From positions 27,063-91,062 of the forward strand of contig CAZFZU010000001.1 in assembly GCA_964523615.1 (NCBI GenBank): a stretch of 64,000 nt of DNA, in the 5' to 3' direction. The notes beneath the pieces are model-generated. The model did no database searches, was not told the DNA's origin, and saw nothing but the letters and a program-made list of their open reading frames with translations. The position numbers and the translations under genes are program-made. Numbering within the stretch: position 1 is the first letter of the stretch; the number at the start of each line of letters is the position of its first letter. Positions 6,764 through 28,669 of this stretch are shown in pieces. The stretch is from an uncultured Eubacteriales bacterium. Lineage in GTDB: Bacteria > Acidobacteriota > Aminicenantia > Aminicenantales > Saccharicenantaceae.

Positions 6764-6798
6764 GGGGACATGTACCGAAGGTACGTGCCCCCTCTTTT
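6764..6798 (+). terminator. Rho-independent terminator downstream of the dehydrogenase
   Basis: GGGGACATGTACC-gaa-GGTACGTGCCCC is followed by CTCTTTTCC. It shares the GGGGACATG core with the larger palindromes. Confidence 0.6.
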
Positions 6799-6819
6799 CC
6801 AGACGCGAAGGAGGCCCAT

Positions 6820-7776: not shown

Positions 7777-7794
7777 TCGCCTTATCTCCGGACT

Positions 7795-10877: not shown

Positions 10878-11936
10878 TCAATAAGGCAGGGCGACGAAGA
10901 ACTCGACCCACTTCCCGGGCTCGCCCTCGACCCAGATGCGGCCCTTGTGCTTGTCGACGACGGTCTTCGAGATGTAGAGCCCCAGGCCCGAGCCCTTGAC
11001 GCCCTCGGTGCCCTTTTGTTTGAGCCGCTCGAAGCGCTTGAAGAGCCGGGGCATGTCTTCCTTGGGGATGCCGACGCCCTCGTTGCGGACCGCCAGCACG
11101 AGCTCGCCGTCCCGCGCCGCCAGCCGTATCCGGACCGGCGTGCCCTCGGCGCCGTACTTGACGGCGTTGTTGACGAGGTTCGCGACCAGGATCTTGAGCA
11201 GGTTGGGATCGCCCTCGATGACGGGGTCGCCGTCGAGCTCGGTCACGATGGCCATCCGGCGGACGTTGTCGCAGACGCCGGGCATGTCCAGGACCGGCCC
11301 GACGACGGCCGAGGCGAAGGGGACCTTCTCCTTGAACAGGGCCAGCCCATCGAGCTCCATCTTGGACAGGTCGATGTAGCTGCGGATGATGTCCTCGAGA
11401 TAGGAGCAGTTGCGGATGATGGTCTCGACGATCCTCTGCTGCTCGGGCTCGAGCTTGCCGAAATAGCCCCGCTGCAGGGTCGTCGCCGTCGTCTGGACGG
11501 CGGCCAGGGGGCTCTTGAGCTCGTGGGAGACGATGGCCATGAGATCGAGCATCTTGGCCCCGGCGGCGTCCTTGCGGGCCTCGATGGCGTTGGCGATGAC
11601 GCTCCGCAGCTCGTCCGGGGTGAAGGGCTTGGGGACGTAGTCGAAGGCCCCGTTCTTGAGGGCTTCGCGGGCCGTGTCGACGCTCGAGAATCCGGTGAAG
11701 ATGATGACGGTCGTCTTGGGCCGGTCCCGGCGCAGGGCCTTGAGGACCTCCATGCCGCCGAGGCCGGGCATCTTGAGGTCGGTGACGACGATGTCGTAGT
11801 CCTTGGCCATGGCCATGGCCAGACCCTCGTCGCCGGAGGGGGCCGTGTCGATCTCGTGGTCGGAGCCGGCGAAGATGCGCTTCGAGCTCTTGAGGACGAT
11901 GTCCTCGTCGTCGATGAACAGCAGCTTGACGCCCAT
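10878..11936 (-). CDS. Hybrid response-regulator receiver / histidine kinase (REC-HisKA-HATPase)
   Basis: REC motifs DDED...DLKMPG...KPF are present, with H-box VSHELKSPL, N-box LVNNAVKY and G-box GSGLGLYIS. Confidence 0.9.
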   Translation of the reverse strand: MGVKLLFIDDEDIVLKSSKRIFAGSDHEIDTAPSGDEGLAMAMAKDYDIVVTDLKMPGLGGMEVLKALRRDRPKTTVIIFTGFSSVDTAREALKNGAFDYVPKPFTPDELRSVIANAIEARKDAAGAKMLDLMAIVSHELKSPLAAVQTTATTLQRGYFGKLEPEQQRIVETIIRNCSYLEDIIRSYIDLSKMELDGLALFKEKVPFASAVVGPVLDMPGVCDNVRRMAIVTELDGDPVIEGDPNLLKILVANLVNNAVKYGAEGTPVRIRLAARDGELVLAVRNEGVGIPKEDMPRLFKRFERLKQKGTEGVKGSGLGLYISKTVVDKHKGRIWVEGEPGKWVEFFVALPY

Positions 11937-11959: not shown

Positions 11960-13882
11960 TCAGCGGGCCGGCAGCTTGATGATGAACTCCGTGCCCTCGC
12001 CGATACGGCTCTGGACGTCGATCTGCCCGCCGTGGCGCTGGATGGCGCCGTAGACCATCGGCAGGCCCAGGCCCGTCCCCTGCCCGCGGTCCTTGGTCGT
12101 GAAGAAGGGCTCGAAGATCTTGTTCAGGTTCTCCTCGCTGATGCCGACGCCCGTGTCGGCCACCCGGATGACGGCCATGCCCGTTCCCGGCTCGACCGAA
12201 GTGGCGATGGTCAGCCGGCCGCCCGAGGGCATGGCGTCGGCCGCGTTGACGGCCAGGTTGTTGATGACCCCCCGGATCTCGCCGGCGTCGACGTTGACGC
12301 GGGGCAGGTCCGGGGCCAGGTCCTTGACGATCTTGACGTTCTGGAAGGTGACGTGCTTCTCCAGGATGCGCAGGGCGTCCTCGATGAGGGCGTTGAGGTC
12401 GGCCGGGGCCCGCTCCGACTTGGTGTCGCGGGCGAAGTCCAGGATGCCCCGGACGATGCCCCGGCAGCGCAGGGTCTCGTCGCGGATGACCTTGAGGTCC
12501 TCCTCGTACGGCGTGCCCTTCATGTCCTCGAGCAGGAGCGAGCTGTAGGTCAGGACGCCGGTCAGGGGGTTGTTGATCTCGTGGGCGATGCCCGAGGCCA
12601 TCCGCCCGATCGAGGCCAGCTTCTCGGACTTCAGGATGGTCCGGTCGGCCAGGTCCGTCAGCTGTCGGTCGCGCTCCTGGATGGCGTCGACCATGCCGTT
12701 GAAGGCCCGGGCCAGCCGCCGGGCGTCCTCGTCGTCGTGGGGGTCGGTCTCGATGCGGTGGTAGAAGCCCAGGGCCATCTCGGTCGAGGCGTCGATGATG
12801 CGCTTGACCGGCTTGGTGTAGAGGGCGATGAGGTAGCCGGACAGGGCCAGGGCCAGGACGGTGGCCAGGAGGATGACCAGGAGGTAGGAGATGGTCGTGT
12901 TGCGGACGACGACGTCGAACTTCTTCTTCAGGACGCCGACGTAGAGCATGCCCAGGACCTTCTGGTCGAAGTCGTAGAGCGGCGTGTAGCCGGAGATGTA
13001 CCAGTCGTCGACGACGAAGGCCTTGCCGACCCAGGTCTCACCGCGCTCGAAGACCTTGCGGTAGACCTCCTCGGACACCTGGGTCCCGATGGCCCGCTTG
13101 CCCGTCGGGCCGAGGACGTTGGTGGCCACCCGGACGTCGCCGAGGAAGATCGTCGTCGTCCCGGCGTCCTTGCCGTTGATCCTCTCGTCCCGGAAGACGA
13201 GACGCTTGAAGCGGTCGACGAAGGCGTCGTTGTTGTTGAGCAGGATGGCGCCGTAGAGGATGCCGGCCAGGCGGTCGCCGTCGAGGATGGGCGCGGCGAT
13301 CTTGATGATCAGGGCCCGGTCCTCGGCCGGCCTCGGCCGGGGCCGGGCGTGCGAGGTCTCGACGACCGGGATGACCGTCCGCGAGGCCAGGTCGGCGCCT
13401 TCCCGGGCGATGTCCTCGTAGTCGAGCAGGCCCGTGCCGGCGATGGGGGCATGGGTCCGCAGGACCTCCTGGACGGTCCGGTAGCCGGTCATGCTGTCGC
13501 CGAAGGCCTCGAAGTTGTTGGCCCGGACGAGCATGGTGCCGTCGGCGTTGATGGCGTCGACGATGTCGAAGCCGAACTCGCGCTTGATCTGGACGAGCTT
13601 CTCGAACAAGAAGGCCCGGTCGCGGGCGGCCGTGGCCCGGACGATCTCGGGGGTCCGGGCCATGTACTGGATGGTCCGGGAGCGGTTGTCGATCTCCTCC
13701 CGGTAGAGCTCGCTCGTCGAGGCCAGGTTGGTCCCCACGGTGGCGTAGGCGTCGCGGACGAGGTTGGTGTTGAGCGCGCTCAGCCCGACGATGATCGACA
13801 GGACCCCGGCCAGCAGGACGATGGCCAGCAGGCTGACGACGAGCTTGAAACGGATGTTCGAGCGCGCGATGGACTTGATCAT
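11960..13882 (-). CDS. Sensor histidine kinase with extracytoplasmic Cache-like domain, HAMP, HisKA and HATPase
   Basis: 640 aa with two TM segments flanking a ~300-aa sensor domain. It has H-box [11 protein letters not shown]-box [12 protein letters not shown] and G-box GTGLGL. The start overlaps the upstream stop by 4 nt. Confidence 0.9.
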
Positions 13883-14283
13883 GACAGGGCCCGGGCGATC
13901 TTGGCCAGCAGCTCGTCGAGATCGACGGGCTTGGTCAGGAACTCGTTCCGCCCCGGCAGAAAGCTGTCGGACGGATCCATGGAGAAGCGCGAGTTCGTGA
14001 CCTGGTCGATGGCCGTCAGGATGACGATGGGGACGTCCCGGAAGGCCCTGTACTTCGAGGTCTCGCGTCGGCTGCGGATGGCGTCGGCGGCCTCGAAGCC
14101 GGCCGTGTCCGTCTCCATCATGACGTCCAGGACGACCAGGTCGGGCCGCTCGGCCAACAGGGCCTTGAGGCCTTCGGCGCCGCTGTGCGCGGCGGCGACG
14201 TCGTAGCCGTGGGCCTTGAGGACCTGGGCCAGGCTGGCCACGAGGTCCCGGTCGTCGTCGACGACGAGGATCTTTTTGCTCAT
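13879..14283 (-). CDS. Single-domain response regulator (CheY-like, with an insert)
   Basis: The protein begins MSKKILVVDDDRD, with ...DLVVLDVMME... and ...LTKPVD. The ATG at 14283 overlaps the hycG-like stop (ATGA). Confidence 0.85.
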   Translation of the reverse strand: MSKKILVVDDDRDLVASLAQVLKAHGYDVAAAHSGAEGLKALLAERPDLVVLDVMMETDTAGFEAADAIRSRRETSKYRAFRDVPIVILTAIDQVTNSRFSMDPSDSFLPGRNEFLTKPVDLDELLAKIARALS

Positions 14284-14810
14284 GTGTTCAGGACCTTGTA
14301 GATGACGTTGCGCTCTTCCCAGGCCTTGTTCCGCTCGTACATGTCGATGGGGAACTCGACCTGTTTGAGCTCGACCGGGGCGGCCTTTTTGTCGACCAGG
14401 CCGAGGGCCAGGGCGACGCCGTAGATGATGGCCTCCGGCCTCGGCGGGCAGCCGGGGATGTAGTAGTCGACCGGGACGGCCGTGGCCCCGCCGCCGGTGA
14501 CGTTGTAGGTGTCGAACCAGCAGCCGCCGCCGATGGCGCAGGAGCCGATGCCGAAGACGAGCTTGGGCGCGGGCATGGCCGCCCAGGCCTTCTTGACGAG
14601 CGGCAGGGTCGGCCGGGTCACGGCCCCGGACAGGAGCATGACGTCGGCGTGGCGCGGCGAGCCGACCAGCTTGATGCCGAACCGTTCGACGTCGTAGTAG
14701 GGCGTCAGGATGTTGAGGATCTCGATGTCGCAGCCGTTGCAGGCGCCGCTGTTGCAGTGGTAGACCCAGAGCGAGCGCGGGAAGCACGTCTTGGCCAGTT
14801 TGGCGAGCAT
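14280..14810 (-). CDS. hycG: Group-4 [NiFe]-hydrogenase small subunit (HycG/NuoB-like)
   Basis: CNSGACNGCDIE, GSCAIGGG and IPGCPPRPE are the NuoB/HycG [4Fe-4S] ligand blocks. Confidence 0.9.
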   Translation of the reverse strand: MLAKLAKTCFPRSLWVYHCNSGACNGCDIEILNILTPYYDVERFGIKLVGSPRHADVMLLSGAVTRPTLPLVKKAWAAMPAPKLVFGIGSCAIGGGCWFDTYNVTGGGATAVPVDYYIPGCPPRPEAIIYGVALALGLVDKKAAPVELKQVEFPIDMYERNKAWEERNVIYKVLNT

Positions 14811-14811
14811 G

Positions 14812-15357
14812 TCAGTCTCCTGTCCCGTCCGGTCGCTCGTAGCGCTCGGTCGGGCCGAGCTCCCGGGGCTCGAAGGTGTCGGTCGCCCGGCGCAGGACCG
14901 TGCGGGCCTCCAGGCTGTCGTAGCGGTAGCCGGTCAGGCCGAGCTTGTCGATGGCGCTGGCCGTCTCCATGTCGTAGCACCGGCCGCAGCGCTGGCAGGT
15001 CAGCATGAACAGCTCCAGCGTCTCCGTGATGTCGTTCCGCTCGTCCGTGGCCTGCTCGAAGCGGTCGGTCATGGCGATGGCCTTCTCCGGGCAGACGTCG
15101 GCGCAGCGGCCGCAGTAGGTGCAGCGCGAGCCGTCGTAGAGGAGGACGCGGATCTCCTGGCAGATGTCGCGGACCATGATGGTCCGGGCCGGGCAGTGGT
15201 TGGCGCAACCGCCGCAGCCGATGCACTTCGTATGGTCCCAGTGAGGGGCGCCGCGGAAGCCCTCCGGGGCCGGCCGGGGCTCGAAGGGGTACTTGAGGGT
15301 CACCACGCCGGGCTTGGCCGCCATCAGGACCTGCTTGATCTTGCTCGTCAGCCACAT
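14812..15357 (-). CDS. hycF: Hydrogenase 2x[4Fe-4S] ferredoxin subunit (HycF/NuoI-like)
   Basis: CIGCGGCANHCP and CTYCGRCADVCP are present, plus an additional CQRCGRC. At 181 aa it is close to E. coli HycF in size. Confidence 0.85.
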   Translation of the reverse strand: MWLTSKIKQVLMAAKPGVVTLKYPFEPRPAPEGFRGAPHWDHTKCIGCGGCANHCPARTIMVRDICQEIRVLLYDGSRCTYCGRCADVCPEKAIAMTDRFEQATDERNDITETLELFMLTCQRCGRCYDMETASAIDKLGLTGYRYDSLEARTVLRRATDTFEPRELGPTERYERPDGTGD

Positions 15358-15376
15358 GGCGCTTCTCCCGGTGCTC

Positions 15377-16282
15377 CTAGATGCCGGCCACGGCCAGCCC
15401 GACCGCGCCGAGGGCGGCCAGGATGAGGACGGCGTAGATCTTGACGGCCTGGTCGATCCGCAGCCGCGGATTGGTCGAGCCGACCACGGCGATGAGGACG
15501 AAGACGGCCATCGTCCCCAGGAGCTGGGTCAGCAGGTCGCCGGCGTAGGCGCCCGTCCGCAGGAAGGGCAGGAAGACGGCCACGAACAGCCAGGCGTAGA
15601 ACATCTGCTTCATCATCATGTACCAGCGGAACAGGGCGTAGTCCGGCCCGCTGAACTCGATGAACGGGCCCTCGAGGACCTCGATCTCGGCCTCCGCGAT
15701 GTCGAAGGGCTGCTTGGACACGAAGGCCTGCAGGGCGGCCAGATAGGCGACGGCCATGACCGCGGTCGAGAGGCCGTAGCCGGCGGCCGAAGCGCCGAAG
15801 ACGGCCGCGCCCAGCCCCAGGCCGCCGGCGCGGGCGGCGCCGACGAGAAGGGTCATGGCCAGGACCGGTTCGACCATGATCATGGTCACCATCTCCCGGC
15901 TGGCCCCGATGGCGGCGAAGGTGTTGCGGCTGGCCAGGGCCCCGACCAGGACCGAGACCCCGCCGAGCGTCAGGAGATAGACGAGGGTGACGGCGTCGAC
16001 CCGAGCGCCCAGGGCGTTGACCTTGGAGCCGAGGGGGACGAGGGCGGCCACGGCCAGGATCGAGGCGAAGGCGGCCGGCGGGGCCAGGCGGAAGGCCCAG
16101 CTCCCGGCCGAGATGAGGCGCTGCTTGCCGAGCAGTTTGAGCAGGTCGAAGTAGGGCTGGACGACCGGCGGCCCCTTGCGGGTCTGGACCCGGGCCGTGA
16201 TCTTGCGCATCACGCCCTCGAAGAGCGGCGCCAGAAGCAGGAAGAGGAGGACGTTGACGAGGACGGCGACGACGCTCACGAT
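15377..16282 (-). CDS. hycD: Hydrogenase membrane subunit (HycD/NuoH-like)
   Basis: 301 aa starting at GTG 16282 behind GAGGAGGG. APLFEGVMRKITARVQTRKGPP is NuoH/HycD-like and the protein is polytopic. Confidence 0.85.
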   Translation of the reverse strand: MVSVVAVLVNVLLFLLLAPLFEGVMRKITARVQTRKGPPVVQPYFDLLKLLGKQRLISAGSWAFRLAPPAAFASILAVAALVPLGSKVNALGARVDAVTLVYLLTLGGVSVLVGALASRNTFAAIGASREMVTMIMVEPVLAMTLLVGAARAGGLGLGAAVFGASAAGYGLSTAVMAVAYLAALQAFVSKQPFDIAEAEIEVLEGPFIEFSGPDYALFRWYMMMKQMFYAWLFVAVFLPFLRTGAYAGDLLTQLLGTMAVFVLIAVVGSTNPRLRIDQAVKIYAVLILAALGAVGLAVAGI

Positions 16283-17964
16283 CCCTCCTCCCCGGCCCCG
16301 CGCCGCGACAGGCGCTCGAGCTCGGCCCGGCCCAGGACGCGTTTCGCGCCCGAGCGGGCGTCGACGACGGCCACCCGGTCCGTGCACGAGAAGCAGGGGT
16401 CGATCTGTCCCAGGATGATGGGGAAGTCGGCGAATTGGTTGTCGAGGAGCATGGCCGGCACGGCCTGCAGGTTCGGATAGGTCGGGGCCCGGACGCGCCA
16501 ACGCTCGGGCCGGTTCTCCTCGCCGGTGACGACGTAGTGGACGGACTCGCCGCGGGGCGCCTCGACCATGGACAGGCCGTGCCGCAGGGGCGGCAGGGCC
16601 TCGGGGACCACGGCCAGGAGCGGCCCGTCGTCGGGCAGGCCGGCCAGGGCCTGGCGCAGGATGGCGATGGACTCGAAGATCTCCAGGACCCGGACGACGA
16701 GCGTCCCCCAGACGTCGCCGCTGTCGGCGACGGGGACGTCGAAGGCCATGTCGGCGTAGGCCGCGTAGGGGTGGTCCTTGCGGCTGTCCATCTTCAGCCC
16801 GCGGGCCCGGGCCACGGGGCCGACCAGGCTCCAGCGCACGGCCTCCTCCCGCGACAGGTAGCCGACGCCCTTGGTCCGGCGGTGGATGGCGCCGTCGCCG
16901 ACGATGGCCTTCTTGAGCGTCATGACCTCCTTCTCCAAGCCGGCCAGGACGCTCTCGATGTCGGCCCGGACCTCGGGCCCGATGTCGCGCCGGACGCCGC
17001 CGATGAGGACCATGCCGTAGGTCTTGCGGTTGCCGGTGATGCGCTCCGAGAGCCACATGACCTTCTCCCGGACCCGCCAGGCCTGCATGAAGACCGTGTC
17101 GAAGCCGATGAGATGCCCGGCGATGCCCAGCCAGAGGAGGTGCGAGTGGAGGCGCTCGATCTCCAGCATGACCGTGCGGATGTACTCGGCCCGACGGGAG
17201 ATCCGGAGGCCGGCGGCGGCCTCGACGGCCTGGGCGTAGCAGACGGCGTGGACCGAGCCGCAGATGCCGCAGATGCGCTCGGCGACGAAGGGCACCTCGT
17301 TGTAGCTGACCTGCGTCTGGCAGAGCTTCTCGATGCCGCGGTGGGTCATGAAGCCGCGGTAGTCGCAGCCCTTGATGGTCTCGCCGTCGACGTAGACGGC
17401 GAAGTGTTCGGGCTCGTGGAGGCTGACGTGGAAGGGCCCGACGGGGACGATGGTCGTCCCGGGCGGGGCCTCGTCGAGCCGGTAGGCGACGTCCTCGGCC
17501 GCCGGCGGCTCGAGGTCGTGCGGGACCTCCTTGCGCAGAGGGTAGATCCCATCCGGCCAGTCGTCGGCCAGGATGAGCCGCTTGGGCTTGGGGTGGCCGG
17601 GGAACGACATCCCCAGGAGGTCCCGGTACTCGCGCTCGGACCAGCCGGCGCTCGGGATGTCCGGGGTGATGGATTCGAAGGACGGGTCGCCGGCCGGGGC
17701 CGAGGTCCGCAGGGCCACCGCGGCGTGGTCGGCGTCGAAGGCGAAGGTGTGGATGAGCCCCAGCGTGCCCTGGCGGGCGATCTCGTCGGTGCCGATGCCG
17801 ACCATGTAGCGGCCGCCGAGCCCGATCAGGGCTTGGGCCGCGGTCCGCAGGACGGCCCGGTCGACGTCGACGAAGAGACGGTCCGGGCGCGGCGACTCCG
17901 CGCCCCGGAAGCCGCCGCCGCAGCGGGCCTCGAGCTCGGTCCTGATCCTGGCGAGGGCGTCCAT
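16276..17964 (-). CDS. hycE: Group-4 [NiFe]-hydrogenase large subunit, NuoC-NuoD fusion (HycE-like)
   Basis: 562 aa. The N-terminal NuoC-like part contains WSEREYRDLLGMSFPGHP. Ni-Fe ligand motifs ERICGICGSVH and IDPCFSCTDR are present. A ~30-aa C-terminal extension after the second motif is a likely substrate for an endopeptidase. Confidence 0.92.
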   Translation of the reverse strand: MDALARIRTELEARCGGGFRGAESPRPDRLFVDVDRAVLRTAAQALIGLGGRYMVGIGTDEIARQGTLGLIHTFAFDADHAAVALRTSAPAGDPSFESITPDIPSAGWSEREYRDLLGMSFPGHPKPKRLILADDWPDGIYPLRKEVPHDLEPPAAEDVAYRLDEAPPGTTIVPVGPFHVSLHEPEHFAVYVDGETIKGCDYRGFMTHRGIEKLCQTQVSYNEVPFVAERICGICGSVHAVCYAQAVEAAAGLRISRRAEYIRTVMLEIERLHSHLLWLGIAGHLIGFDTVFMQAWRVREKVMWLSERITGNRKTYGMVLIGGVRRDIGPEVRADIESVLAGLEKEVMTLKKAIVGDGAIHRRTKGVGYLSREEAVRWSLVGPVARARGLKMDSRKDHPYAAYADMAFDVPVADSGDVWGTLVVRVLEIFESIAILRQALAGLPDDGPLLAVVPEALPPLRHGLSMVEAPRGESVHYVVTGEENRPERWRVRAPTYPNLQAVPAMLLDNQFADFPIILGQIDPCFSCTDRVAVVDARSGAKRVLGRAELERLSRRGAGEEGS

Positions 17965-17974
17965 GCGCGTCTCC

Positions 17975-19843
17975 CTACTTCCCGTTCCGGCCGCCGGCGG
18001 GCTTGAAGAGCGACCGCAGGCCGGCGAACATGCCCCGGTCCGCGTACCGGTTGGCTTCGTTGAGGTCCTGATAGCCGCAGAGCCAGGTCGGCGCGGCGGC
18101 GTCCTTGGAACCGCCCGACCGCCGCAGCAGGGCCCCCAGCCCCAGCCCGGCCGCGAGGAGGGCCAGGACGAGGAGCGGGACGGCGGCCGCGCCGAGGCCT
18201 TTCAGCCCGACTCCCAGAGCCGCGGCCGGCCCGAGGCCGCCCGGCGCGTTCAAGGCGTCGGCCAAGAGGAAGCCCTCGGAGCGCCGCAGCACGGCCAGGG
18301 CCAGGCCGACCGAGAGGACCGGGAAGAGCCCCTGGACGAGGGCCAGGAGGACCAGGGCGACCTGGGGGACGAGCATCGATCCCGGGACCTCGCGGATGGG
18401 CCTCGCGGCGTGGTGCTCGGCCCCCGACGAGGTGAAGGCCATGCCGAAGAACTTGACGTAGCAGGCCAGGGTCACCGCGCTCGTGAACAGGGCCACGACG
18501 CCGAAGACGACCAATAAGAAGGTCGCCTCCCCCGCCAGGACCGAGCTCGAGACGATGGCCCACTTGCTGGCGAAGCCGCTGAAGGGCGGCATGCCGGCGA
18601 TGGACAGCGAGGCCAGGCCGGCGACGACGGCGCTCACGGGCATCAGGCGGATGAGCCCGCCGAGCCGGTTGAGGTCGCTCGTCCCGGTGGCGTAGAGGAT
18701 GCCGCCGCCCGTGAGGAAGAGGGCCTCTTTGAACACGGCGTGGTTGAGGGCGTGGTAGAGGGCCCCGACGGCGGCGGCCGCGGCCAGGACGAGCAGGCGG
18801 GCCTGGAGGCCGGCATCGGCGGTCGCGGCGGAGAAACCGGCCAAGCCGAGAGCGGCCCCGAGCGCCAGGACGATGTAGCCGATTTGGCCGATGGAGCTGA
18901 AGGCCAGGAGGCGCTTGGCGTCGCTCTGGAGCATGGCTTGGACGGTGCCGATGAGCAGGGTCGCCGCTCCGACGGCGGCCACGATCAGGCCCCAGGTCCG
19001 GGCGGAGAAGGCCGGGTTGGCGAGCGGGGCCAGGAACAGGAAGACCCGCATCAGGCCGAAGATGCCGGTCTTGCTCATGGCCGAGCTGAGCAGGGCGCCG
19101 ACCGGGGAGGGGGCCGCGGCGTAGGCCCCCGGCAGCCAGAGCTGGCCGAGGGGGAAGACGCCGGCCTTGAGCCCGAAGCCGGCGAGCAGAAGCCCGAAGA
19201 ACAGGGCCAGGGCCGGCCCGCCCGCGCCGGCCAGACGGCCGCCGATCTCCGGCAGAGTCTCGCCGAAGCGGTAGCCGCCGACGGCGAAGGGGGCGGCCAC
19301 GGCCAGCAGCCAGGCCAGTTCCATGAAGATCAGGAAGTCCCGGGCGGCCCGGGCCGTCCCCGGCCGATCGCGGTCGAACCGGACCAGGGCGTAGGCCGGC
19401 AGGGTCATGACCTGCCAGGCCAGGGTGAAGCCCAGGGCCAGGTCGTCCACGACGAGGACGGCGGCCATGCCGAGCAGGAAGAGCGGGAAGCAGGCGTAAT
19501 AGCCGCGCAGGTCGCGCCCCGGGAAGCGGTCCATATAGCGGATCGAATAGAGGGCGCTGGCCAGGCCCATGACGGCGACGACGGCCAGGAAGATGGCGGC
19601 CAGGCCGTCGACGAGGAGCGGCACGGAGACGGGCCCGAGGGAGACGGTCCGCGCGGCGTGGCCGGCATGGCCGAACAGGGCCTCGTAGCCGACCGTGAGC
19701 AGCAGGGCCGACGAGACCGCGACCAGGACCAGGTTGACCGTCCCCGCGAGGGCGCGCCGGCGCCCGGCAGCGAGCGCCGCGACCGCCGCCGCGGCCAGGG
19801 CGCCGAAGGCGGCGAAGAGGCGGACGAAGAGGTCAGCGGTCAT
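17975..19843 (-). CDS. hycC: Antiporter-like membrane subunit (HycC/NuoL-M-N family)
   Basis: About 622 aa from ATG 19843 (MTADLF...). The protein is polytopic, and its FSSIGQIGYIVLALG and NHAVFKEALFL blocks are typical of NuoL/M/N and HycC. Confidence 0.85.
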   Translation of the reverse strand: MTADLFVRLFAAFGALAAAAVAALAAGRRRALAGTVNLVLVAVSSALLLTVGYEALFGHAGHAARTVSLGPVSVPLLVDGLAAIFLAVVAVMGLASALYSIRYMDRFPGRDLRGYYACFPLFLLGMAAVLVVDDLALGFTLAWQVMTLPAYALVRFDRDRPGTARAARDFLIFMELAWLLAVAAPFAVGGYRFGETLPEIGGRLAGAGGPALALFFGLLLAGFGLKAGVFPLGQLWLPGAYAAAPSPVGALLSSAMSKTGIFGLMRVFLFLAPLANPAFSARTWGLIVAAVGAATLLIGTVQAMLQSDAKRLLAFSSIGQIGYIVLALGAALGLAGFSAATADAGLQARLLVLAAAAAVGALYHALNHAVFKEALFLTGGGILYATGTSDLNRLGGLIRLMPVSAVVAGLASLSIAGMPPFSGFASKWAIVSSSVLAGEATFLLVVFGVVALFTSAVTLACYVKFFGMAFTSSGAEHHAARPIREVPGSMLVPQVALVLLALVQGLFPVLSVGLALAVLRRSEGFLLADALNAPGGLGPAAALGVGLKGLGAAAVPLLVLALLAAGLGLGALLRRSGGSKDAAAPTWLCGYQDLNEANRYADRGMFAGLRSLFKPAGGRNGK

Positions 19844-20339
19844 GGCGATCCTCCGGGCGGGCGGGGGCCAGGGCGCCCAGGACGGCATCGCGCACGCCGG
19901 CGGCGGCCCGGGCCACGGCGGGCGTCAGGCCCTCGCCGAAGTCCAGGTCGGCGGGCACGATGCCGAGGAGAAAGGCCTCTTTGCCGGCGGCCGCGAGATA
20001 CTTGCCGCTGAGCGAGAGGGCCATTTTGTGGGTCGAGAAGCTCTCGGCCTCGGCCAGGTCGGCCAGGCGGCCGAAGACGACGGTCCCGGGCTCGCCCTCG
20101 GCGGCCACGGCGTCGACGAAGACGACGTTCCGGGCGGCGCCGCGGGCGATGGCCGGGACGAAGTTCTCGGGCACGTCCTGGGCGTCGACGAGATCCAAGG
20201 CGGAGGCGGCCGCGGTCCCGCGCAGGGCGGCCACGATCCAGGGGCCGACGCCGTCGTCCCGGCGCAGGGGGTTGCCGACGCCGACGAGACAGGCCGGGCC
20301 GCGGAGGACGTCGGCCAGGCGGGGGGCGCCGTCCGTCAT
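19833..20339 (-). CDS. hycI: Hydrogenase maturation endopeptidase (HycI family)
   Basis: 168 aa with GVGNPLRRDDGVGPW, DAQDVPENF and STHKMAL. The ATG overlaps the upstream stop (ATGA). Confidence 0.85.
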   Translation of the reverse strand: MTDGAPRLADVLRGPACLVGVGNPLRRDDGVGPWIVAALRGTAAASALDLVDAQDVPENFVPAIARGAARNVVFVDAVAAEGEPGTVVFGRLADLAEAESFSTHKMALSLSGKYLAAAGKEAFLLGIVPADLDFGEGLTPAVARAAAGVRDAVLGALAPARPEDRHDR

Positions 20340-21178
20340 ATCTGCTCTCCCAGGGTCTTGATCTGCTTGTAGGTGTAGACCGGGCCGTCCGTGCAGACGA
20401 GGGTCCGGCCGATGGCGCAGTGCTGGCACTTGCCGATGCCGCACTTCATGTGCCTCTCGAGCGTGGAGACGATGGCCTCGTCCTTGAGCCCGGCCGCCAG
20501 GAGCTCCTTGATGACCGAGTTGAACATCAGCGGCGGGCCGCAGACGAAGGCGACGGTGTCCCGGACCGGCACCTGGGCCGGCTTGACGAGCGTGTGGACG
20601 AAGCCGACGGGGCCCGTCCAGCCCGGCTCGGGGCGGTCGATGGTGAAGTAGGTCTCGAAGCCCTCGGTGGCCTTCCATCGGTCGATCATGTCCCGGTACA
20701 TCAGCTCCTTGGAGGAGCGGGAGCCGTAGATGAGGATGATGCGGCCGAAGTCCCGCCGGTGCTGGAGGACATGGACGATGGACGAGCGCAGCGGGATGAG
20801 CCCGATGCCGCCGGCGACGTAGACGACGTTCTTGCCCTTGATGGCCTCGAAGGGGAAGCCGTTGCCGAAGGGGCCGCGGATGCCGATCTTGTCCCCGGCC
20901 CCGAGCTCGTGGAGGGCCCGGGTGACCTTGCCCACCCGGCGGACCGACAGGTGGGGCCGGTCGCCCTCGGGGCTGAACGGCAGGGACACGGCGAACTCGC
21001 CGGCGCCGAAGACCGTGCACATGACGAACTGGCCGGACCGGATGCGGAAGTCCCGGGCGGCCTCCGGCCGCTCGAACGAGAAGTAGAAGGTGCGGACGTC
21101 CTCGATCTCGTCCCGGACCTCGTCGATGACGGCGACCTCGGGGACGGTGACGATGGCGCCGGGGTTCTGAGCGCTCAT
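20336..21178 (-). CDS. FAD/NAD(P)-binding [2Fe-2S] oxidoreductase, sulfhydrogenase gamma (HydG) / AsrB / PyrK-like
   Basis: 280 aa with a ferredoxin-reductase-type fold. Motifs are GPFGNGF, VYVAGGIGLIPLRS and the C-terminal cluster motif MKCGIGKCQHCAIG...C. Confidence 0.8.
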   Translation of the reverse strand: MSAQNPGAIVTVPEVAVIDEVRDEIEDVRTFYFSFERPEAARDFRIRSGQFVMCTVFGAGEFAVSLPFSPEGDRPHLSVRRVGKVTRALHELGAGDKIGIRGPFGNGFPFEAIKGKNVVYVAGGIGLIPLRSSIVHVLQHRRDFGRIILIYGSRSSKELMYRDMIDRWKATEGFETYFTIDRPEPGWTGPVGFVHTLVKPAQVPVRDTVAFVCGPPLMFNSVIKELLAAGLKDEAIVSTLERHMKCGIGKCQHCAIGRTLVCTDGPVYTYKQIKTLGEQI

Positions 21179-22242
21179 TTCGCGCCTGCCTTGGTGATCT
21201 CGCGCCGGATGTAGGTGACGACGTTGGCGATGCCGATGTCGCCGGGGCAGACCCGGTTGCAGCGGCCGCAGCCGACGCAGCCGGGCCGGAGGTATTTCTT
21301 GGACTGGGAATAGGACAGCTTGCAGAAGAAGCGCTTGTTGCGGCGGTCCTCGACGGGCTTGCGGGGATTGTGGTCGCCGGCCATGCGGGTGTAGCCCTCG
21401 AAGGAGCAGGAGTCCCAGGACCGCGTCCGGTCGGTCCGGCCGCCGTCCGCGGCCAGGTCCTCGACGTTGAAGCAGGAGCAGGTCGGGCAGACGAACGAGC
21501 AGGCCCCGCACTCGAAGCACTGGTCGCCGATGTACTCCCAGACCTCGTTGGCGATGAAGCCCATGGTGATGCGGTTCATGACCCGCGAGATCCAGGCCTT
21601 GTTCTCGGTGGCCTCGGCGTCGAAGCGGGCGATGGAGGCGTCGACGGCGGCCTTCTTGACGGCCGCGGCGTCCGGGCCGGCCTCGGCCAATCCCAGGCGG
21701 CGGGCCAGGGCCTCGCCCTTCTCGCTGCCGGCCTCGTAGAGGTAGCGGTCGCCGACGGCGGTCAGGGCGGCGTCGTAGCCCTCCCGGGCGGCCGGGCCGC
21801 TGTCCGTGCAGACGCAGAAGCACTGGGGGAAGGGCCGGACGCAGGTGTTGGCCAGGACGAACATCTTCTTGCGGTGGTCGCGGTAGACCTCGTCGACGTA
21901 TTCCTGGCCGAGGAAGAAGCGGTCCAGGCAGAGGAGGCCGTTGAGGTCGCAGGCCCGGATGCCGACCAGGGCCTTGGGCCGGACGAGGTCCTCGCGGACG
22001 ACGGCGGCCTGGCGCGTCTCCCGGTCGTAGCGGTAGGATAGGATCCGCTCGGCCTGGGGGAAGACGGCGTGCTTGGGCGGGTTGTAGGTGATGGGGGCGT
22101 CGAGACGGATCACGGCCGGGTCCTCGACCCGCTCGAACATGGGGTCGCCGCCGTCGGCCCGGACGACGGGGCCGTAGAGGTCGTGGTCGGCGGCCAGAGC
22201 GGCCAGGAGCGCGGCGACCCGGTCTCGGGGCAGGATGTACAT
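21175..22242 (-). CDS. Poly-[4Fe-4S] protein, sulfhydrogenase beta (HydB) / AsrA-like
   Basis: 355 aa from ATG 22242. CFECGACSFVCPTCSCF and CVGCGRCNRVCP are present. The overall layout is that of the AsrA/HydB family. Confidence 0.75.
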   Translation of the reverse strand: MYILPRDRVAALLAALAADHDLYGPVVRADGGDPMFERVEDPAVIRLDAPITYNPPKHAVFPQAERILSYRYDRETRQAAVVREDLVRPKALVGIRACDLNGLLCLDRFFLGQEYVDEVYRDHRKKMFVLANTCVRPFPQCFCVCTDSGPAAREGYDAALTAVGDRYLYEAGSEKGEALARRLGLAEAGPDAAAVKKAAVDASIARFDAEATENKAWISRVMNRITMGFIANEVWEYIGDQCFECGACSFVCPTCSCFNVEDLAADGGRTDRTRSWDSCSFEGYTRMAGDHNPRKPVEDRRNKRFFCKLSYSQSKKYLRPGCVGCGRCNRVCPGDIGIANVVTYIRREITKAGAK

Positions 22243-22244
22243 CG

Positions 22245-24203
22245 TCACACCTTCTCGATCCGCACGGGGATGGCCGATTCCTGGTCCTCGTCGATGGAGG
22301 TCCCGGCGGCGTTGAGGAAGCCCGGCACCATGTCCTCGATGAAGTACGGGACGTGGACGGTCCCGGGCCGGACGTCCTCGGAGACGCGGACGGCGACCCG
22401 CATCGAGCCGCCGGCGGCGACGACGTCGACGGGGGCGCGGTCGCGGAGGCCAAGCCGCTTGGCGTCGGAGGCCTCGACCTCGACGAAGCCCCGCGGGTAC
22501 AGGAGGAGCAGGGCGTTGTACTCCCGCTTGGGGATCTGGGTCTTCTTCATGATGTTGTTGCGGTGCCAGAAGTAGTTGGCCTTGCCGGCCATGAGCAGGA
22601 AGGGGAACTCGTCCGAGGCGGCCGGCACGGAGAAGTCGGCGCCGGGGGCGACGAAACGGAGGAGGCGGCCGGCGGAAGCGGCGTCGTAGCGGAGCGTGCC
22701 TTCCGGGCGGGCGGCGTCGACGGGCCACTGCAGGCCGTGGCCTTTCTCGAGCCCGGCGTAGGTGACGCCGGCGTAGGCCGGAACGGCCGCGGCGATCTCG
22801 GCCATGACGCCCTCGGCCGAGTCGACCGCCCAGCCGGCGCCGAGCTTGGCGGCCAGGTCGGCGTAGACGCGCCAGGCCGGGCGGACGCCGGCCGGGGGCT
22901 CGACCTTCTTGCGGTTGAGCTGGATGCGCCGCTCGGCGTTGGTGTAGGTCCCGTCGGTCTCCGCGGACGAGGCGGCCGGCAGGACGACGTGGGCGAACTC
23001 GGCGAAGGGGTTGGCGAAGGCGCCGATGTAGACGAGGCAGTCGAGGGCGCCGAGCTTGGCGGCGTGGCGGACGATCTCCTCGTCACGGTCGGCCACGACC
23101 AGGGCCTTGAGCGGCGTGGGCTCGGCCGCCAGCAGCTCGCGCGGCGTCCGGCCGGCCGCCGGGCCCTCGGCCCGGCGGTGGCCGGCGAGGAAGCGGTTCG
23201 AGGCGCCCACGTCCGTCCCTCCGAGGAGGTTGCAGATGCCCGTGACGGGGTTGACGCCGCAGCCCTCCCGGCCGACCTTGCCGGCGGCCAGGAAGAGGTC
23301 GAAGAGCAGGGCCGTGGAGGCCCGGTCGAGGCCGGCGATCCCGGAGGTGAAGAAGGCCATGGCCGTCGACGCCTGGGCCAGCCGCCGGGCCAGGTCCTCG
23401 ATCGTCGCGGGCTCGAGCCCGGCGGCCCCGGCCAGGGCGGCCAGGTCGAGGACGGCCAGGGAGCGGGCGAAATCGTCGAAGCCCTCGGTCCGCTCGCGGA
23501 CGAAGGCCTCGTCGTGCCAGCCGCGCTCGACGAGGACCTTGGCCAGGGCGGCCAGGACGTGCCGCAGGGTCCCCGGGCGGAGCCAGAGGTGGCGGCCGCT
23601 GAGCCGGGCGATCTGGGTCGAGCGCGCGCTCAGGGTGACGAGCTCGGACCCGCCCCGGGCGGCCCGGTGGATCTCGCTGCCGACGATGGGATTGAGCTTG
23701 GCGATGTCGGCCCCGGCGACCAGGATGAAGCCGGCCTTCCGGATCTCGGTCAGGCCGCCGGACATGGCCGGCCAGCCCGTGCCCTCGAGGAGGACGTCGG
23801 CGGCCTCGCCGTGCCCCTGGTCGGAGGCCAGGGCGATGTGGGGCGTGCGGAAGACCGAGCGGGCCAGCTGGGCCATGAGGAAGTTGTCCTCGTTGGAGGC
23901 CCGCGGCGAGGCCAGGAAGGCGATCTCGTCGCCGGAGTAGCGGCCCAGCCGGTCCGCGGCGTAGGTCAAAGCCTCATCGTAGGGGACCGTCTGGAGGCGG
24001 CCGTCGCGCCGGACGGCCGGCGAGACGATCCGGTCCCGCGTCGCCAGGAGCTCGTGGATGTGCCAGCCGCGGACGCAGAGACGTCCCCGGCTGACGGGGT
24101 GGCCGGGGGCGGCGAAAACGCCGCGGACGGCGCCGTCCCGGACGTCGAGCAGATGGCCGCAGCCGGTGCCGCAGAAGTTGCAGACCCCCGAGTGAGTGCT
24201 CAT
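22245..24203 (-). CDS. Molybdopterin-oxidoreductase family protein, FdhH-like (formate dehydrogenase alpha-like) with non-canonical active-site residues
   Basis: 652 aa. The N-terminal [4Fe-4S] motif is CNFCGTGCG...C. Blocks collinear with FdhH include RTEGFDDF, GVNPVTG and HVPYF. The ORF is uninterrupted, so there is no in-frame TGA and no selenocysteine. Confidence 0.8.
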   Translation of the reverse strand: MSTHSGVCNFCGTGCGHLLDVRDGAVRGVFAAPGHPVSRGRLCVRGWHIHELLATRDRIVSPAVRRDGRLQTVPYDEALTYAADRLGRYSGDEIAFLASPRASNEDNFLMAQLARSVFRTPHIALASDQGHGEAADVLLEGTGWPAMSGGLTEIRKAGFILVAGADIAKLNPIVGSEIHRAARGGSELVTLSARSTQIARLSGRHLWLRPGTLRHVLAALAKVLVERGWHDEAFVRERTEGFDDFARSLAVLDLAALAGAAGLEPATIEDLARRLAQASTAMAFFTSGIAGLDRASTALLFDLFLAAGKVGREGCGVNPVTGICNLLGGTDVGASNRFLAGHRRAEGPAAGRTPRELLAAEPTPLKALVVADRDEEIVRHAAKLGALDCLVYIGAFANPFAEFAHVVLPAASSAETDGTYTNAERRIQLNRKKVEPPAGVRPAWRVYADLAAKLGAGWAVDSAEGVMAEIAAAVPAYAGVTYAGLEKGHGLQWPVDAARPEGTLRYDAASAGRLLRFVAPGADFSVPAASDEFPFLLMAGKANYFWHRNNIMKKTQIPKREYNALLLLYPRGFVEVEASDAKRLGLRDRAPVDVVAAGGSMRVAVRVSEDVRPGTVHVPYFIEDMVPGFLNAAGTSIDEDQESAIPVRIEKV

Positions 24204-24381: not shown

Positions 24382-24879
24382 CTAAAGTAAAGGTCCCCGG
24401 AGCTTCAGGCCGATGACGTACATAATATTGTAAAGATTGGAGATACCGCCGACGAAACGCTCCTTGACCAGGCCCTTGGGGATGTCGTCGATGACGGCCT
24501 TGAGGCCGTCGAGAGCGGCCTTGAGAGCCTCGTGGTCGGCCTGCAGGGCGGCGCGGCCGTCCGAGGCCGCGAGGGCCTCGGAGGACGGGCCGACCCGGGA
24601 GACGTCGTCGAACATCGCCCGGTAGGCCTCGCGCCGGGAGCGGGGCACGGCCAGGACGGCTTTCTCGATGAGGGCGGCCCGGGTCACGGCGTAGCCGATG
24701 AGGACCTCGGCGGCGTTGCGGTCCTGAGCCCGGTCGGGGTAGCGCTCGAAGTAGGCCTCGCCGAGGGCGATCATGTCGGCGCTTTCGAGCGGGAAGGCGC
24801 CGTCGAGGGCCCGGACGGCGCCGCGGAAGGCGCCGGCGTCGGGCTCGCGGCGGAAGAGATCGGCCAGGGAGACGGTCAT
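24382..24879 (-). CDS. Hypothetical protein (predicted all-alpha, 165 aa)
   Basis: The ORF has native codon bias and lies in the co-directional array. I recognise no motif. Confidence 0.55.
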   Translation of the reverse strand: MTVSLADLFRREPDAGAFRGAVRALDGAFPLESADMIALGEAYFERYPDRAQDRNAAEVLIGYAVTRAALIEKAVLAVPRSRREAYRAMFDDVSRVGPSSEALAASDGRAALQADHEALKAALDGLKAVIDDIPKGLVKERFVGGISNLYNIMYVIGLKLRGPLL

Positions 24880-24928: not shown

Positions 24929-25306
24929 CTACTTGGCCTTGGCGTACCGGCCGATGACGGCCAGCAGCAGGTCGAAGTTGACGGGTTTCTGGAAGACGCC
25001 GCTGAAGCCGAACTCGGCCAGGCCGACGGTGGCCGCCGTGGCGTCGCCGATCGTGCTCAGCAGGAACACGGGCGTCCCGGGCCGCTCCGTCTTCATGATC
25101 TTGGTCACCTGGCCGCCCGAATCGATGTCCTCCATCATCATGTCGCAGAGGACGATGTCGGGGTTCGTCTTCCGGAAGGCCTCGAGGCCCTCCTTGCCGC
25201 TGAGGGCGGTGGCGGCCTCGAAGCCGCTGGCGTCGAGGATGGCCTTGACGGATTCGACGATGGCCGGGTCGTCGTCGATGATGAGCACCTTTTTCTTATC
25301 GCTCAT
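24929..25306 (-). CDS. Single-domain response regulator (CheY-like)
   Basis: The protein begins MSDKKKVLIIDDDP, with ...DIVLCDMMME... and ...FQKPV. It is 125 aa. Confidence 0.85.
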   Translation of the reverse strand: MSDKKKVLIIDDDPAIVESVKAILDASGFEAATALSGKEGLEAFRKTNPDIVLCDMMMEDIDSGGQVTKIMKTERPGTPVFLLSTIGDATAATVGLAEFGFSGVFQKPVNFDLLLAVIGRYAKAK

Positions 25307-27749: not shown

Positions 27750-28669
27750 CCTCCGATGCGGACATCGAAACCGGCCTCCCGGAAGGCCGCGGCGACGGCC
27801 GCCACGCGCTCCTCCCCGGGGGCCTCGAAGGCCCGGAAATCCCGTTCCCGGCCGATCCGGCGGGCCTTCTCCATGCCGCCGGCGTGATAGGGCAGCAGCC
27901 CGACCCGCTCGACCTTCCCCAGCGACCTGAGGAAGTCGATCGTGCGCCGGACGTTGCCGTCGTCGTCGTTGACGCCGGGGACCAGCGGAACGCGGACCCA
28001 GACCTCTGTCCTGCGCGCGACGAGCCGGCTGAGGTTCTCGAGGAGGGGCCCGTTCGGGGCGCCCGTCGTCTCGCGGTGCCGGGCGTCGTCCATGACCTTG
28101 AGGTCGTAGAGGACGAGGTCGGCTCTCGCGGCCAGCCGGTCGAGGACGCCGGGGGCGGCCATCCCCGCCGTATCGATGGCCGTCCGCAGGCCGCGGGCCC
28201 GGCAGGCGTCGAGGACGGCCTCGGCGAAATCCGATTGGACGAAGGGATCTCCGCCCGAAAGGGTCACGCCGCCGCCCGACTGCTCGTAGAAGATACGGTC
28301 CCTCTCGACCTCGGCCACGACCTCGTCGACGGTCATCTCCCGGCCGACGATCTGCATGGCGTCGTAGAGACAGGCCTCGGCGCACTTGCCACAGGCGTCG
28401 CATTTGGCCCGGTCGACGGAAACGGCCCCGTCGCCGTTCTTAGCGATGGCCCCGGGGGGACAGGCGGCGACGCAGGCGTAGCAGCGGCGGCAGCGGGCCG
28501 GCCAATGCATGAGCTCGGGCCCGGGATCGACGCTTTCGGGATTGTGGCACCACAGGCAGCGCAGGGCGCAGCCTTTGAGGAAGACGGTCGTCCGGATGCC
28601 CGGTCCGTCGTGGATCGAGTAGCGCTTGATGTCGAAAACGCGTCCCTTCAAGTCGCTCACTTTTTTCAA
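27746..28669 (-). CDS. Glycyl-radical enzyme activating enzyme (radical SAM with ferredoxin-like insert)
   Basis: CALRCLWCHNPE is the CxxxCxxC motif. Extra clusters are CRRCYACVAACP and CDACGKCAEAC. The GGGVTLSGGDP SAM motif is present. Confidence 0.9.
   Translation of the reverse strand: MKKVSDLKGRVFDIKRYSIHDGPGIRTTVFLKGCALRCLWCHNPESVDPGPELMHWPARCRRCYACVAACPPGAIAKNGDGAVSVDRAKCDACGKCAEACLYDAMQIVGREMTVDEVVAEVERDRIFYEQSGGGVTLSGGDPFVQSDFAEAVLDACRARGLRTAIDTAGMAAPGVLDRLAARADLVLYDLKVMDDARHRETTGAPNGPLLENLSRLVARRTEVWVRVPLVPGVNDDDGNVRRTIDFLRSLGKVERVGLLPYHAGGMEKARRIGRERDFRAFEAPGEERVAAVAAAFREAGFDVRIGG

Follow-up and report, generated by a model that had tools for sequence, protein, structure and literature searches.

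The locus described here raises the question of what a membrane-bound [NiFe]-hydrogenase exchanges electrons with when the subunits that would feed it in a formate hydrogenlyase (FHL) are replaced by others. It lies in a stretch of 64,000 nucleotides (nt), hereafter the window, taken from positions 27,063 to 91,062 of contig CAZFZU010000001.1 (forward strand; assembly GCA_964523615.1) of an uncultured member of the Aminicenantales, phylum Acidobacteriota. On the minus strand of the window, genes for a Hyc-type hydrogenase follow genes for a molybdopterin-type protein (MopB) and for two subunits related to AsrA/HydB and AsrB/HydG. A first reading, made from the letters before any database search (the original prediction), had proposed a group-4 hydrogenase coupled to NAD(P)(H), either alone or together with a formate-type donor. 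From the analysis reported here, we consider, with a probability of about 0.55, that these products form an NAD(P)(H)-linked, ion-coupled complex that would evolve or consume H2, and its MopB subunit no longer appears to be a formate dehydrogenase (FDH). The nine genes are listed below in their order of transcription, with product lengths in amino acids (aa).

24203..22245, minus strand: MopB (FdhF-like), 652 aa; Pfam Molybdop_Fe4S4, Molybdopterin, Molydop_binding
22242..21175, minus strand: AsrA/HydB-like poly-[4Fe-4S] electron-transfer subunit, 355 aa; Pfam Fer4_22, 98 bits
21178..20336, minus strand: AsrB/HydG-like subunit for flavin adenine dinucleotide (FAD), NAD(P) and [2Fe-2S], 280 aa; Pfam FAD_binding_6, NAD_binding_1, DHODB_Fe-S_bind
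20339..19833, minus strand: HycI-type maturation endopeptidase, 168 aa; Pfam HycI
19843..17975, minus strand: HycC, single antiporter-like (NuoL-type) membrane subunit, 622 aa; Pfam Proton_antipo_M, Proton_antipo_N
17964..16276, minus strand: HycE, [NiFe] large subunit of the fused NuoC-NuoD type, 562 aa; Pfam Complex1_30kDa, NiFeSe_Hases, Complex1_49kDa
16279..15377, minus strand: HycD, NuoH-like membrane subunit, 300 aa, GTG start; Pfam NADHdh, 176 bits
15357..14812, minus strand: HycF, NuoI-like 2x[4Fe-4S] subunit, 181 aa; Pfam Fer4 families
14810..14280, minus strand: HycG, NuoB-like small subunit with the proximal [4Fe-4S] site, 176 aa; Pfam Oxidored_q6

The original prediction had described nine close-packed genes with gaps of -11 to +19 nt, and start mapping gives exactly that range: the junctions calculated from the coordinates, from MopB through HycG, are -4, -4, -4, -11, +10, -4, +19 and +1 nt. 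Every domain assignment in the nine genes was borne out by Pfam and NCBIfam, and the composition is as claimed for each product. The predicted sizes were recovered for HycC, HycE and HycF (622, 562 and 181 aa), but HycD, given as 301 aa, has 300 aa and a GTG start; independent gene calls on public contigs that carry an identical HycE return the same sizes (622/562/300/181 aa). The extent of the unit had been set too short: all nine genes are present, but the unit continues past hycG into the genes of a receiver and two sensor kinases, reaching position 10878, and the start of the receiver gene overlaps the hycG stop codon by 4 nt. A scan for promoters and terminators gave counts no different from those of shuffled sequence and was uninformative.

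To survey the arrangement, one genome per GTDB species was scanned, in which 149 close relatives were found and 80 loci were kept; all window proteins were then compared with the 80 loci by tblastn, and the synteny counts are taken over loci with enough flank. In 68 of 70 loci the genes for MopB, AsrA-like and AsrB-like proteins precede hycI-hycCEDFG with strand and order unchanged, and the figure rises to 69 of 70 if one locus with a frameshifted MopB gene (L060) is counted; the nine genes are therefore a real operon-type unit, far beyond chance. A survey for asrA/asrB-like genes upstream of hyc genes had been suggested as a check with the original prediction, and such co-occurrence was thus found in 69 of the 70 testable species loci. 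In the sole exception (L012), only the stretch from the 3' end of asrB to hycD is recognisable; we take it to be rearranged or chimeric and do not count it against the pattern.

The arrangement is not unique to the window but is a widespread operon type. Its hosts span at least four phyla, with Aminicenantes and other Acidobacteriota, many Spirochaetota, a metagenome-assembled genome (MAG) of Thiodictyon, and Thermodesulfobacteriota, and they include the cultured Rhodocyclus purpureus DSM 168, Chitiniphilus shinanonensis DSM 23277, C. eburneus and Chitinilyticum piscinae. The HycE of the window is 85-88% identical to the HycE of Aminicenantes MAGs. In two loci, listed respectively as a deltaproteobacterial MAG (L073) and a Thermodesulfobacteriota MAG (L077), the order is hycC-hycD-MopB-AsrA-AsrB-hycI-hycE-hycF-hycG-receiver, the three-gene module being nested within the hydrogenase genes, between hycD and hycI-hycE. 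The ten proteins give pairwise-distance matrices that correlate with one another (r 0.58-0.90, with r=0.89 for MopB versus HycE), so that the gene set was inherited and transferred as one block. This strict synteny across phyla, the nesting in L073 and L077, and the congruent distance matrices argue that the module belongs to the hydrogenase; the same evidence argues against the three upstream genes encoding an unrelated soluble enzyme, an outcome that the original prediction had named as fatal to it.

The hydrogenase core and its proposed input subunits

By its sequence, the core is a membrane-bound [NiFe]-hydrogenase of the Hyc type, FHL-like and group 4a-like, the label 4a being taken from a structure match and from 40% identity. 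The features of the Hyc type are all found, namely both CxxC motifs, a HycE of the fused NuoC-NuoD type with its tail and a HycI, and NuoL-, NuoH-, NuoI- and NuoB-like partners, whereas two features of a classical FHL, HycB and a catalytic FdhH, are lacking. Identity to the E. coli counterparts is 40% for HycE, 51% for HycG, 35% for HycD, 32% for HycF, 29% for HycC and 29% for HycI. The closest solved structure to HycE is 7z0s_E, from the E. coli FHL complex (E=3.3e-124, 419 bits), and P. furiosus MbhL scores 256 bits.

The two Ni-Fe ligand motifs of HycE that had been read from the sequence at the outset (RICGICGSVH at residues 230-239 and DPCFSCTDR at 522-530) are invariant in 83 family members, and Cys232, Cys235, Cys524 and Cys527 are present in 83 of 83. 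The 32-aa tail that follows DPCFSCTDR is conserved and aligns with the cleaved tail of E. coli HycE, while HycI matches TIGR00072 at 101.8 bits (cut-off 47.45); the pairing of a C-terminal tail with a matching HycI gene is thus as first proposed, and cleavage is predicted. HycF matches PRK12387, "formate hydrogenlyase complex iron-sulfur subunit", with E=8.6e-31 and 107.1 bits, under the cut-off of 204 bits, and its 12 Cys residues are invariant in 81 members; Cys19, Cys24, Cys27, Cys91 and Cys121 of HycG are conserved. In the hydrogenase and the AsrA/AsrB-like subunits together, no metal or cofactor motif varies among the 69-83 family members compared.

Assignment to HydDB group 4f (Ehf/Ehr-type), some members of which are without Ni-binding CxxC motifs and maturation genes (PMC13019369; 10.1101/328856), was considered and set aside, the CxxC motifs and HycI being intact and invariant here and the nearest characterised relative being E. 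coli HycE.

The system that the core resembles most is E. coli formate hydrogenlyase-1 (hydrogenase 3, HycBCDEFG with FdhH; PDB 7Z0S), with which it shares homologues of HycC, HycD, HycE, HycF and HycG at the identities given above, the fused HycE with its tail, and HycI. It differs from that enzyme in lacking HycB, HycA and HycH, in having a flavin/NAD(P) subunit, in its gene order (C-E-D-F-G here, C-D-E-F-G in E. coli) and in the length of HycG (176 aa here, 255 aa in E. coli). The absence of HycB, on which the first reading had relied, is upheld: E. coli HycB has no match among the cluster proteins or in the six-frame translation of the 64-kb window (E<=0.01). When the whole window was searched by six-frame tblastn with E. 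coli FdhF and Hyc queries, the only match outside the cluster was a ferredoxin-like stretch in a glycyl-radical activase. Outside the cluster, Pfam was run on the strongest open reading frames (ORFs) selected by GC3, which cover about 1 to 54.8 kb of the window, and among these scanned ORFs there is no second hydrogenase, formate dehydrogenase, AsrC or hyp gene.

As had been claimed, a HydB/HydG-type pair stands in the position of HycB. Residues 4-339 of the AsrA-like protein, almost its full length, match the beta subunit of the NADPH-dependent P. furiosus sulfhydrogenase I (9nez_B, E=3.7e-40), and the AsrB-like protein matches the gamma subunit (9nez_C, E=1.3e-52), also over almost its full length. 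In 74 members each, 17 Cys residues of the AsrA-like protein are invariant, as are the nucleotide-binding motif GGIGxIPLRS and the [2Fe-2S] ligands Cys246, Cys251, Cys254 and Cys262 of the AsrB-like protein. The likeness to P. furiosus sulfhydrogenase I (group 3b, PDB 9NEZ) thus covers near-full-length alignment of beta and gamma, the Cys motifs and the FAD/NAD(P)/[2Fe-2S] module, but the partner there is a soluble alpha/delta pair, whereas here it is a membrane-bound group-4 hydrogenase. The usual partners of these two families, the group 3b alpha/delta hydrogenase subunits and the siroheme protein AsrC, are found neither in the cluster nor among the other scanned ORFs of the window, and no Complex1_51K or 2Fe-2S_thioredx domain, which would mark NuoF or NuoE homologues, is present in the cluster. 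The AsrA-like protein most likely occupies the HycB position as an electron-transfer subunit, and from these homologies we infer coupling to NAD(P)H and ion translocation.

The MopB subunit and the relatives of the module

The designation of MopB as an FdhH-like molybdopterin protein holds for its fold and for the Cys ligands of its FS0 cluster, but not for its catalytic residues. When MopB was aligned by HMMER to three solved FDHs and by MAFFT to E. coli FdhF, with which it shares 26% identity, Gly130 fell at the position of the Mo ligand selenocysteine-140 (Sec140) and Thr321 at that of Arg333, so that this counterpart of E. coli FdhH is without both Sec/Cys140 and Arg333. Among 71 family members, the ligand position holds Gly in 63, Trp in seven and Thr in one, and Sec or Cys in none, while the position of Arg333 holds Thr in 44, Ala in 21, Pro in three and Val in three, and Arg in none. 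Gln335, part of the PLRGQNNVQG motif, is replaced by Ile, Val or Leu across the 71 members, and His141 is kept in 58 and lost in 13. In contrast, Cys8, Cys11, Cys15 and Cys43 of the FS0 [4Fe-4S] site occur in all 71 members, and the position of Lys44 is invariably Arg.

Wider comparisons show the same contrast between a retained fold and lost residues. E. coli FdhF, FdnG and NapA are identical at 81 columns; the MopB family keeps 35 of these, close to the 29 kept by the cofactor-less C-terminal domain of E. coli NuoG, and of 81 columns conserved in the 23 closest canonical relatives it clearly loses 14, including the CxRxCH motif. MopB is the second-fastest evolving protein of the set (mean p-distance 0.48, versus 0.27 for the AsrB-like protein, 0.30 for HycE and 0.19 for HycG). 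With a constrained fold and iron-sulfur (FeS) cluster next to a variable "active site", which is the pattern of NuoG, MopB is, judging from its residues, not a formate dehydrogenase. The formate-type donor of the original prediction is accordingly withdrawn: positions 130 and 321 hold Gly and Thr, no member has the catalytic residues, the score against TIGR01591 is 370.7 bits for a cut-off of 666.25, and the neighbouring glycyl-radical enzyme is HypD and not pyruvate formate-lyase (PFL).

A word-indexed search with MopB returned members of the MopB family only, and its outgroups were reached by an exhaustive HMMER search of 1.84 billion representatives followed by alignment. The relatives split in two. 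Those with canonical CARxCH and PLRGQNNVQG motifs belong, as far as they could be looked up, to MopB-AsrA-AsrB modules without hydrogenase genes in the recovered stretches. In one of them (L095, 17.9 kb), the module lies at 5841-9533 in the order MopB-AsrA-AsrB, immediately downstream of MoaA/D/E, MoeB and MobA-like genes; in the other (L093, 5.9 kb, module at 1251-5879), the AsrB-like gene is upstream of MopB across an insertion sequence (IS) transposase, and a MobA-like gene is near. The proteins of these two modules show 28-34% identity.

The relatives without these motifs are the closest to the MopB of the window (32-34% identity) and again occur in the MopB-AsrA-AsrB arrangement. L089 (345-12381) combines the module with a full Hyc operon whose HycE shows 54% identity, and L092 (153-11696) combines it with HycI, hycE and two antiporter-like subunits (Hyf-like), preceded by HypA and CobW/HypB-like genes; L091 is a short partial contig on which only the three module genes are visible. 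In L089 there is no receiver gene, and a cNMP-binding protein and a second Fer4_22 protein are encoded downstream instead.

The two stand-alone modules thus share with the window the same three protein families, and in L095 the same order, but differ in a canonical MopB with CxRxCH and PLRGQNNVQG, in adjacent molybdenum cofactor (Moco) genes, and in the absence of hydrogenase genes from the recovered contigs. Among contig-verified members, degeneration of MopB tracks linkage to the hydrogenase (window, L089, L091 and L092 versus L093 and L095), which suggests a changed, complex-bound role for MopB. The canonical three-gene clusters look like an undescribed type of soluble FDH that uses HydB/HydG-like subunits, and are presumed to represent the ancestral type of the module. 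In the simplest reading, a soluble FDH-AsrA-AsrB enzyme, presumably NAD(P)-linked, would have been recruited onto a Hyc-type hydrogenase, after which the catalytic subunit would have lost formate oxidation while the flavin/NAD(P) branch was retained.

Proposed electron path and rival explanations

Starting from the gene content, the cofactor motifs, the homologies, the loss of FDH residues, and the conservation and co-inheritance of the gene set, which are directly supported, we infer how the subunits would assemble, which path the electrons would take, how and in which direction NAD(P)H would be used, and how ions would be coupled. The FdhH and HycB input would be replaced by the three-protein module derived from a soluble MopB-AsrA-AsrB dehydrogenase. 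Electrons would be exchanged between NAD(P)H and the FAD and [2Fe-2S] cluster of the AsrB-like subunit, pass along the [4Fe-4S] chain of the AsrA-like subunit to the two [4Fe-4S] clusters of HycF and the [4Fe-4S] cluster of HycG, and reach the [NiFe] site of HycE, where 2H+ and H2 are interconverted; each of these steps would be reversible. HycD and HycC would couple this turnover to movement of H+ or Na+ across the membrane, and MopB would serve as a structural or electron-storing, cluster-bearing subunit, like the MopB-derived C-terminal domain of NuoG.

The midpoint potentials are about -320 mV for NAD(P)H and -414 mV for H2. This couple being near equilibrium, the complex could run either way, as set by the H2 pressure and the NAD(P)H ratio: when the H2 pressure is low, NAD(P)H could be oxidised with release of H2, perhaps with help from the membrane potential, and in the reverse sense H2 could be consumed to reduce NAD(P)+, with a small gain of energy. 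The direction most to be expected in fermenters is that of H2 evolution at low H2, which the membrane potential might pull.

A single core with exchangeable input modules, such as FdhH-HycB, CooS-CooF, ferredoxin, FpoF or NuoEFG, underlies both the group-4 hydrogenases and complex I, and a Hyc core with an NAD(P)H module of the HydB/HydG type would extend this list by a new kind of input. The arrangement resembles the N-module of complex I in placing an NAD(P)H flavoprotein, an FeS chain and a non-catalytic, FeS-bearing, MopB-derived subunit on a core of NuoB/C/D/H/I/L-type proteins, and by analogy it recalls the way in which respiratory complex I is believed to have come together. The likeness is one of function and architecture, however: the flavoprotein here is of the FNR/PyrK type with FAD and is not homologous to NuoE/NuoF, and the acceptor is H+ at the [NiFe] site where complex I uses quinone. 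We put forward tentatively, at somewhat less than even odds, a more far-reaching form of the proposal, in which the product of the operon is a "complex-I-like" enzyme of independent origin, an ion-coupled NAD(P)H:H+ oxidoreductase whose non-NuoEF flavoprotein module stems from a soluble NAD(P)-linked FDH and whose MopB decayed to a NuoG-like vestige.

Several observations weigh against an NAD(P)H-linked, ion-coupled complex. Residue 144 of HycC in transmembrane helix 5 (TM5), which corresponds to E144 of NuoL and is Glu in E. coli HycC, is Gln in 78 of 78 members. HycC keeps the Lys/His residues of TM7, TM8 and TM12, but the change in TM5 makes ion pumping uncertain; proton pumping could be altered or absent, and ion coupling via HycC is plausible but not assured. 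The scores of the input subunits are below all equivalog cut-offs, those of the AsrA-like protein being 147.9 bits against HydB (cut-off 750), 144.8 against ShyB (690) and 141.4 against AsrA (323.15), and those of the AsrB-like protein 188.5 against HydG (650), 191.8 against ShyC (600) and 175.4 against AsrB (288.6), so that AsrA/AsrB-like function is transferred at the superfamily level only. The ferredoxin-dependent Ech hydrogenase has the same six-subunit composition as the Hyc core and needs no extra input module; NAD(P)H therefore need not be the physiological partner. MopB retains 48 of the 81 columns that its 23 closest canonical FDH relatives conserve, and polar residues specific to the family are invariant at 35-36, 47, 166, 171, 398, 546-549 and 560-562, among them H35-P36, W546-H547-x-N549 and R560-E561-Y562. 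These residues could belong to a contact surface for the AsrA-like subunit, to an unrecognised site or indeed to a new active site rather than a scaffold, and from the sequence a pterin cofactor may still be bound.

The likeness of the Hyc core to a minimal Ech leads to the first rival explanation, in which two enzymes are merely co-regulated and share a redox pool: an Ech-like, ferredoxin-dependent six-subunit hydrogenase (HycCDEFG), and a soluble MopB-AsrA-AsrB enzyme acting as an NAD(P)H:acceptor oxidoreductase, with ferredoxin for example as acceptor. Such a separation would fit the canonical modules, whose recovered contigs (17.9 kb in L095, but only 5.9 kb in L093) contain no hydrogenase genes. 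We nevertheless regard it as unlikely, given a linkage that is near-universal across phyla, the 4-nt start/stop overlaps between the module genes and hycI, the position of the module amid the hyc genes of L073 and L077, the congruent evolutionary histories, and a MopB that degenerates where the hydrogenase is linked.

Alternatively, the complex could be a true hydrogenlyase, in which MopB is an active Mo/W enzyme that oxidises formate through a non-canonical site, or another small substrate, with electrons passing to the hydrogenase via the AsrA-like subunit as a stand-in for HycB, and the AsrB-like subunit forming a side branch to NAD(P)+. The retained MopB fold, FS0 cluster and canonical columns, the invariant polar residues, and a gene position that mirrors the fdhF-hycB logic speak for this view, and some enzymes with molybdenum bis(pyranopterin guanine dinucleotide) (Mo-bisPGD), such as arsenite oxidase, have no protein ligand to Mo. 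However, the position of the ligand is not only devoid of Cys or Sec but itself variable (G/W/T), the catalytic Arg is always gone and its position equally variable (T/A/P/V), the His is lost in 13 of 71, and residues conserved in FdhF, FdnG and NapA have been lost about as in cofactor-less NuoG. MopB is moreover among the fastest-evolving proteins of the set, no Moco genes are near the operon, unlike in the canonical relative L095, and the adjacent glycyl-radical enzyme is HypD, not PFL, all of which makes an active MopB rather improbable.

Least probable of all is a confurcating, dual-donor complex in which NAD(P)H, entering via the AsrB-like subunit, and reduced ferredoxin, entering via an exposed FS0 of MopB or via the AsrA-like subunit, would jointly drive H2 evolution: it would solve the thermodynamic problem of making H2 from NAD(P)H, would account for a strictly conserved, apparently off-pathway FS0 in a non-catalytic subunit, and would suit fermenting hosts, for which the window shows amino-acid and sugar pathways, but AsrB/HydG/PyrK/NfnA-type flavoproteins are, from what has been established for NfnAB, not known as sites of bifurcation, and the operon has no second flavin-binding subunit.

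The NAD(P)(H)-linked complex proposed here has no characterised counterpart among group-4 enzymes in the literature searched, in agreement with what the first reading had supposed, although incomplete coverage of that literature leaves a prior classification possible. A published comparison of Rhodocyclus genomes makes no mention of the operon. The only prior description that we found is an "enigmatic" group-4 region of Saganbacteria RX5A, with a single-FeS MopB that could not be classified as an FDH and with asrA-like, asrB-like and cooF-like genes (PMC6349859). These genes adjoin an Mrp-Mbh-type hydrogenase; Matheus Carnevali et al. 2019 proposed an "oxidoreductase module" for them and left their function undetermined (PMC6349859, Supplementary Note 5, Supplementary Fig. 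3c-e). The region resembles the window in having MopB, asrA-like and asrB-like genes beside a membrane-bound [NiFe] hydrogenase, and differs in its Mrp-Mbh-type hydrogenase and cooF-like gene, this distinction being drawn from the published description and not from sequences. The operon type has thus been overlooked, or mislabelled as formate hydrogenlyase, in spite of being widespread.

If the proposed reading is true, metabolic reconstructions that call this operon "formate hydrogenlyase" would be wrong on its substrate. The operon would also represent a second independent case, after NuoG, of an FDH subunit decaying to a scaffold, which bears on the origin of complex I, and would parallel, in living organisms, the acquisition of the N-module by complex I. 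It would further provide fermenters, including the cultivable Chitiniphilus and Rhodocyclus, with a bifurcation-independent membrane route for exchange between NAD(P)H and H2, and would be relevant to the redox balance of abundant uncultured fermenters (Aminicenantes, Spirochaetota) in digesters and sediments. Since the operon is present in cultured strains, the question is open to experiment.

Probable regulators and other genes of the window

Downstream of hycG, the unit continues with three genes for signalling proteins, and other genes lie upstream of MopB on the same strand.

14283..13879, minus strand: stand-alone receiver (CheY-like); Pfam Response_reg
13882..11960, minus strand: sCache sensor histidine kinase; Pfam sCache_3_3, HisKA, HATPase_c
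11936..10878, minus strand: hybrid receiver-histidine kinase; Pfam Response_reg, HisKA, HATPase_c
24879..24382, minus strand: ORF of 165 aa without Pfam or NCBIfam match, between HypD and the operon
25306..24929, minus strand: second stand-alone receiver, 125 aa, between HypD and the operon
27743..25380, minus strand: trans-4-hydroxy-L-proline dehydratase (HypD), a glycyl-radical enzyme; NCBIfam 1282 bits, cut-off 1100
28669..27746, minus strand: HypD activase; NCBIfam

The receiver gene directly follows hycG in 74 of the 75 loci with enough flank, across phyla, and its product may therefore regulate the complex directly, or even bind it. An sCache kinase gene comes after the receiver gene in 49 of 70 loci, and most loci from Acidobacteriota and Spirochaetota have both the sCache kinase and the hybrid receiver-kinase downstream. 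Neither the receiver nor the two kinases contain a DNA-binding output domain. As companions of the operon, the receiver and the sensor kinases are probably its regulators.

The genes for HypD and its activase are directly upstream of the hydrogenase operon and co-directional with it. Pfam labels the region 25380..28403, which is a 1007-aa ATG-to-stop ORF, as "PFL-like", and since this ORF overlaps the activase gene, the HypD start is probably near 27743. A link to formate through this "PFL-like" gene was considered and dismissed, the curated model identifying it as HypD and the adjacency being found only in the closest Aminicenantes relatives. The 165-aa ORF upstream of MopB is conserved in the Acidobacteriota loci only. 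MopB itself is preceded by 178 nt of intergenic sequence that include an AT-rich patch.

Further away, a 2-hydroxyglutaryl-CoA dehydratase D-component and a BcrAD/BadFG-type activator ATPase are encoded at 52587-54782 (minus strand), and together with the HypD, aminotransferase, racemase and peptidase genes they indicate an amino-acid-fermenting lifestyle. The gene at 7795-9921 (minus strand) encodes a Schlafen group 3-like protein with a DNA/RNA helicase domain (E=4.5e-81). The stretch that holds it, the only one in the window with markedly low GC (0.57 versus about 0.68), may be a foreign or defence-related insertion.

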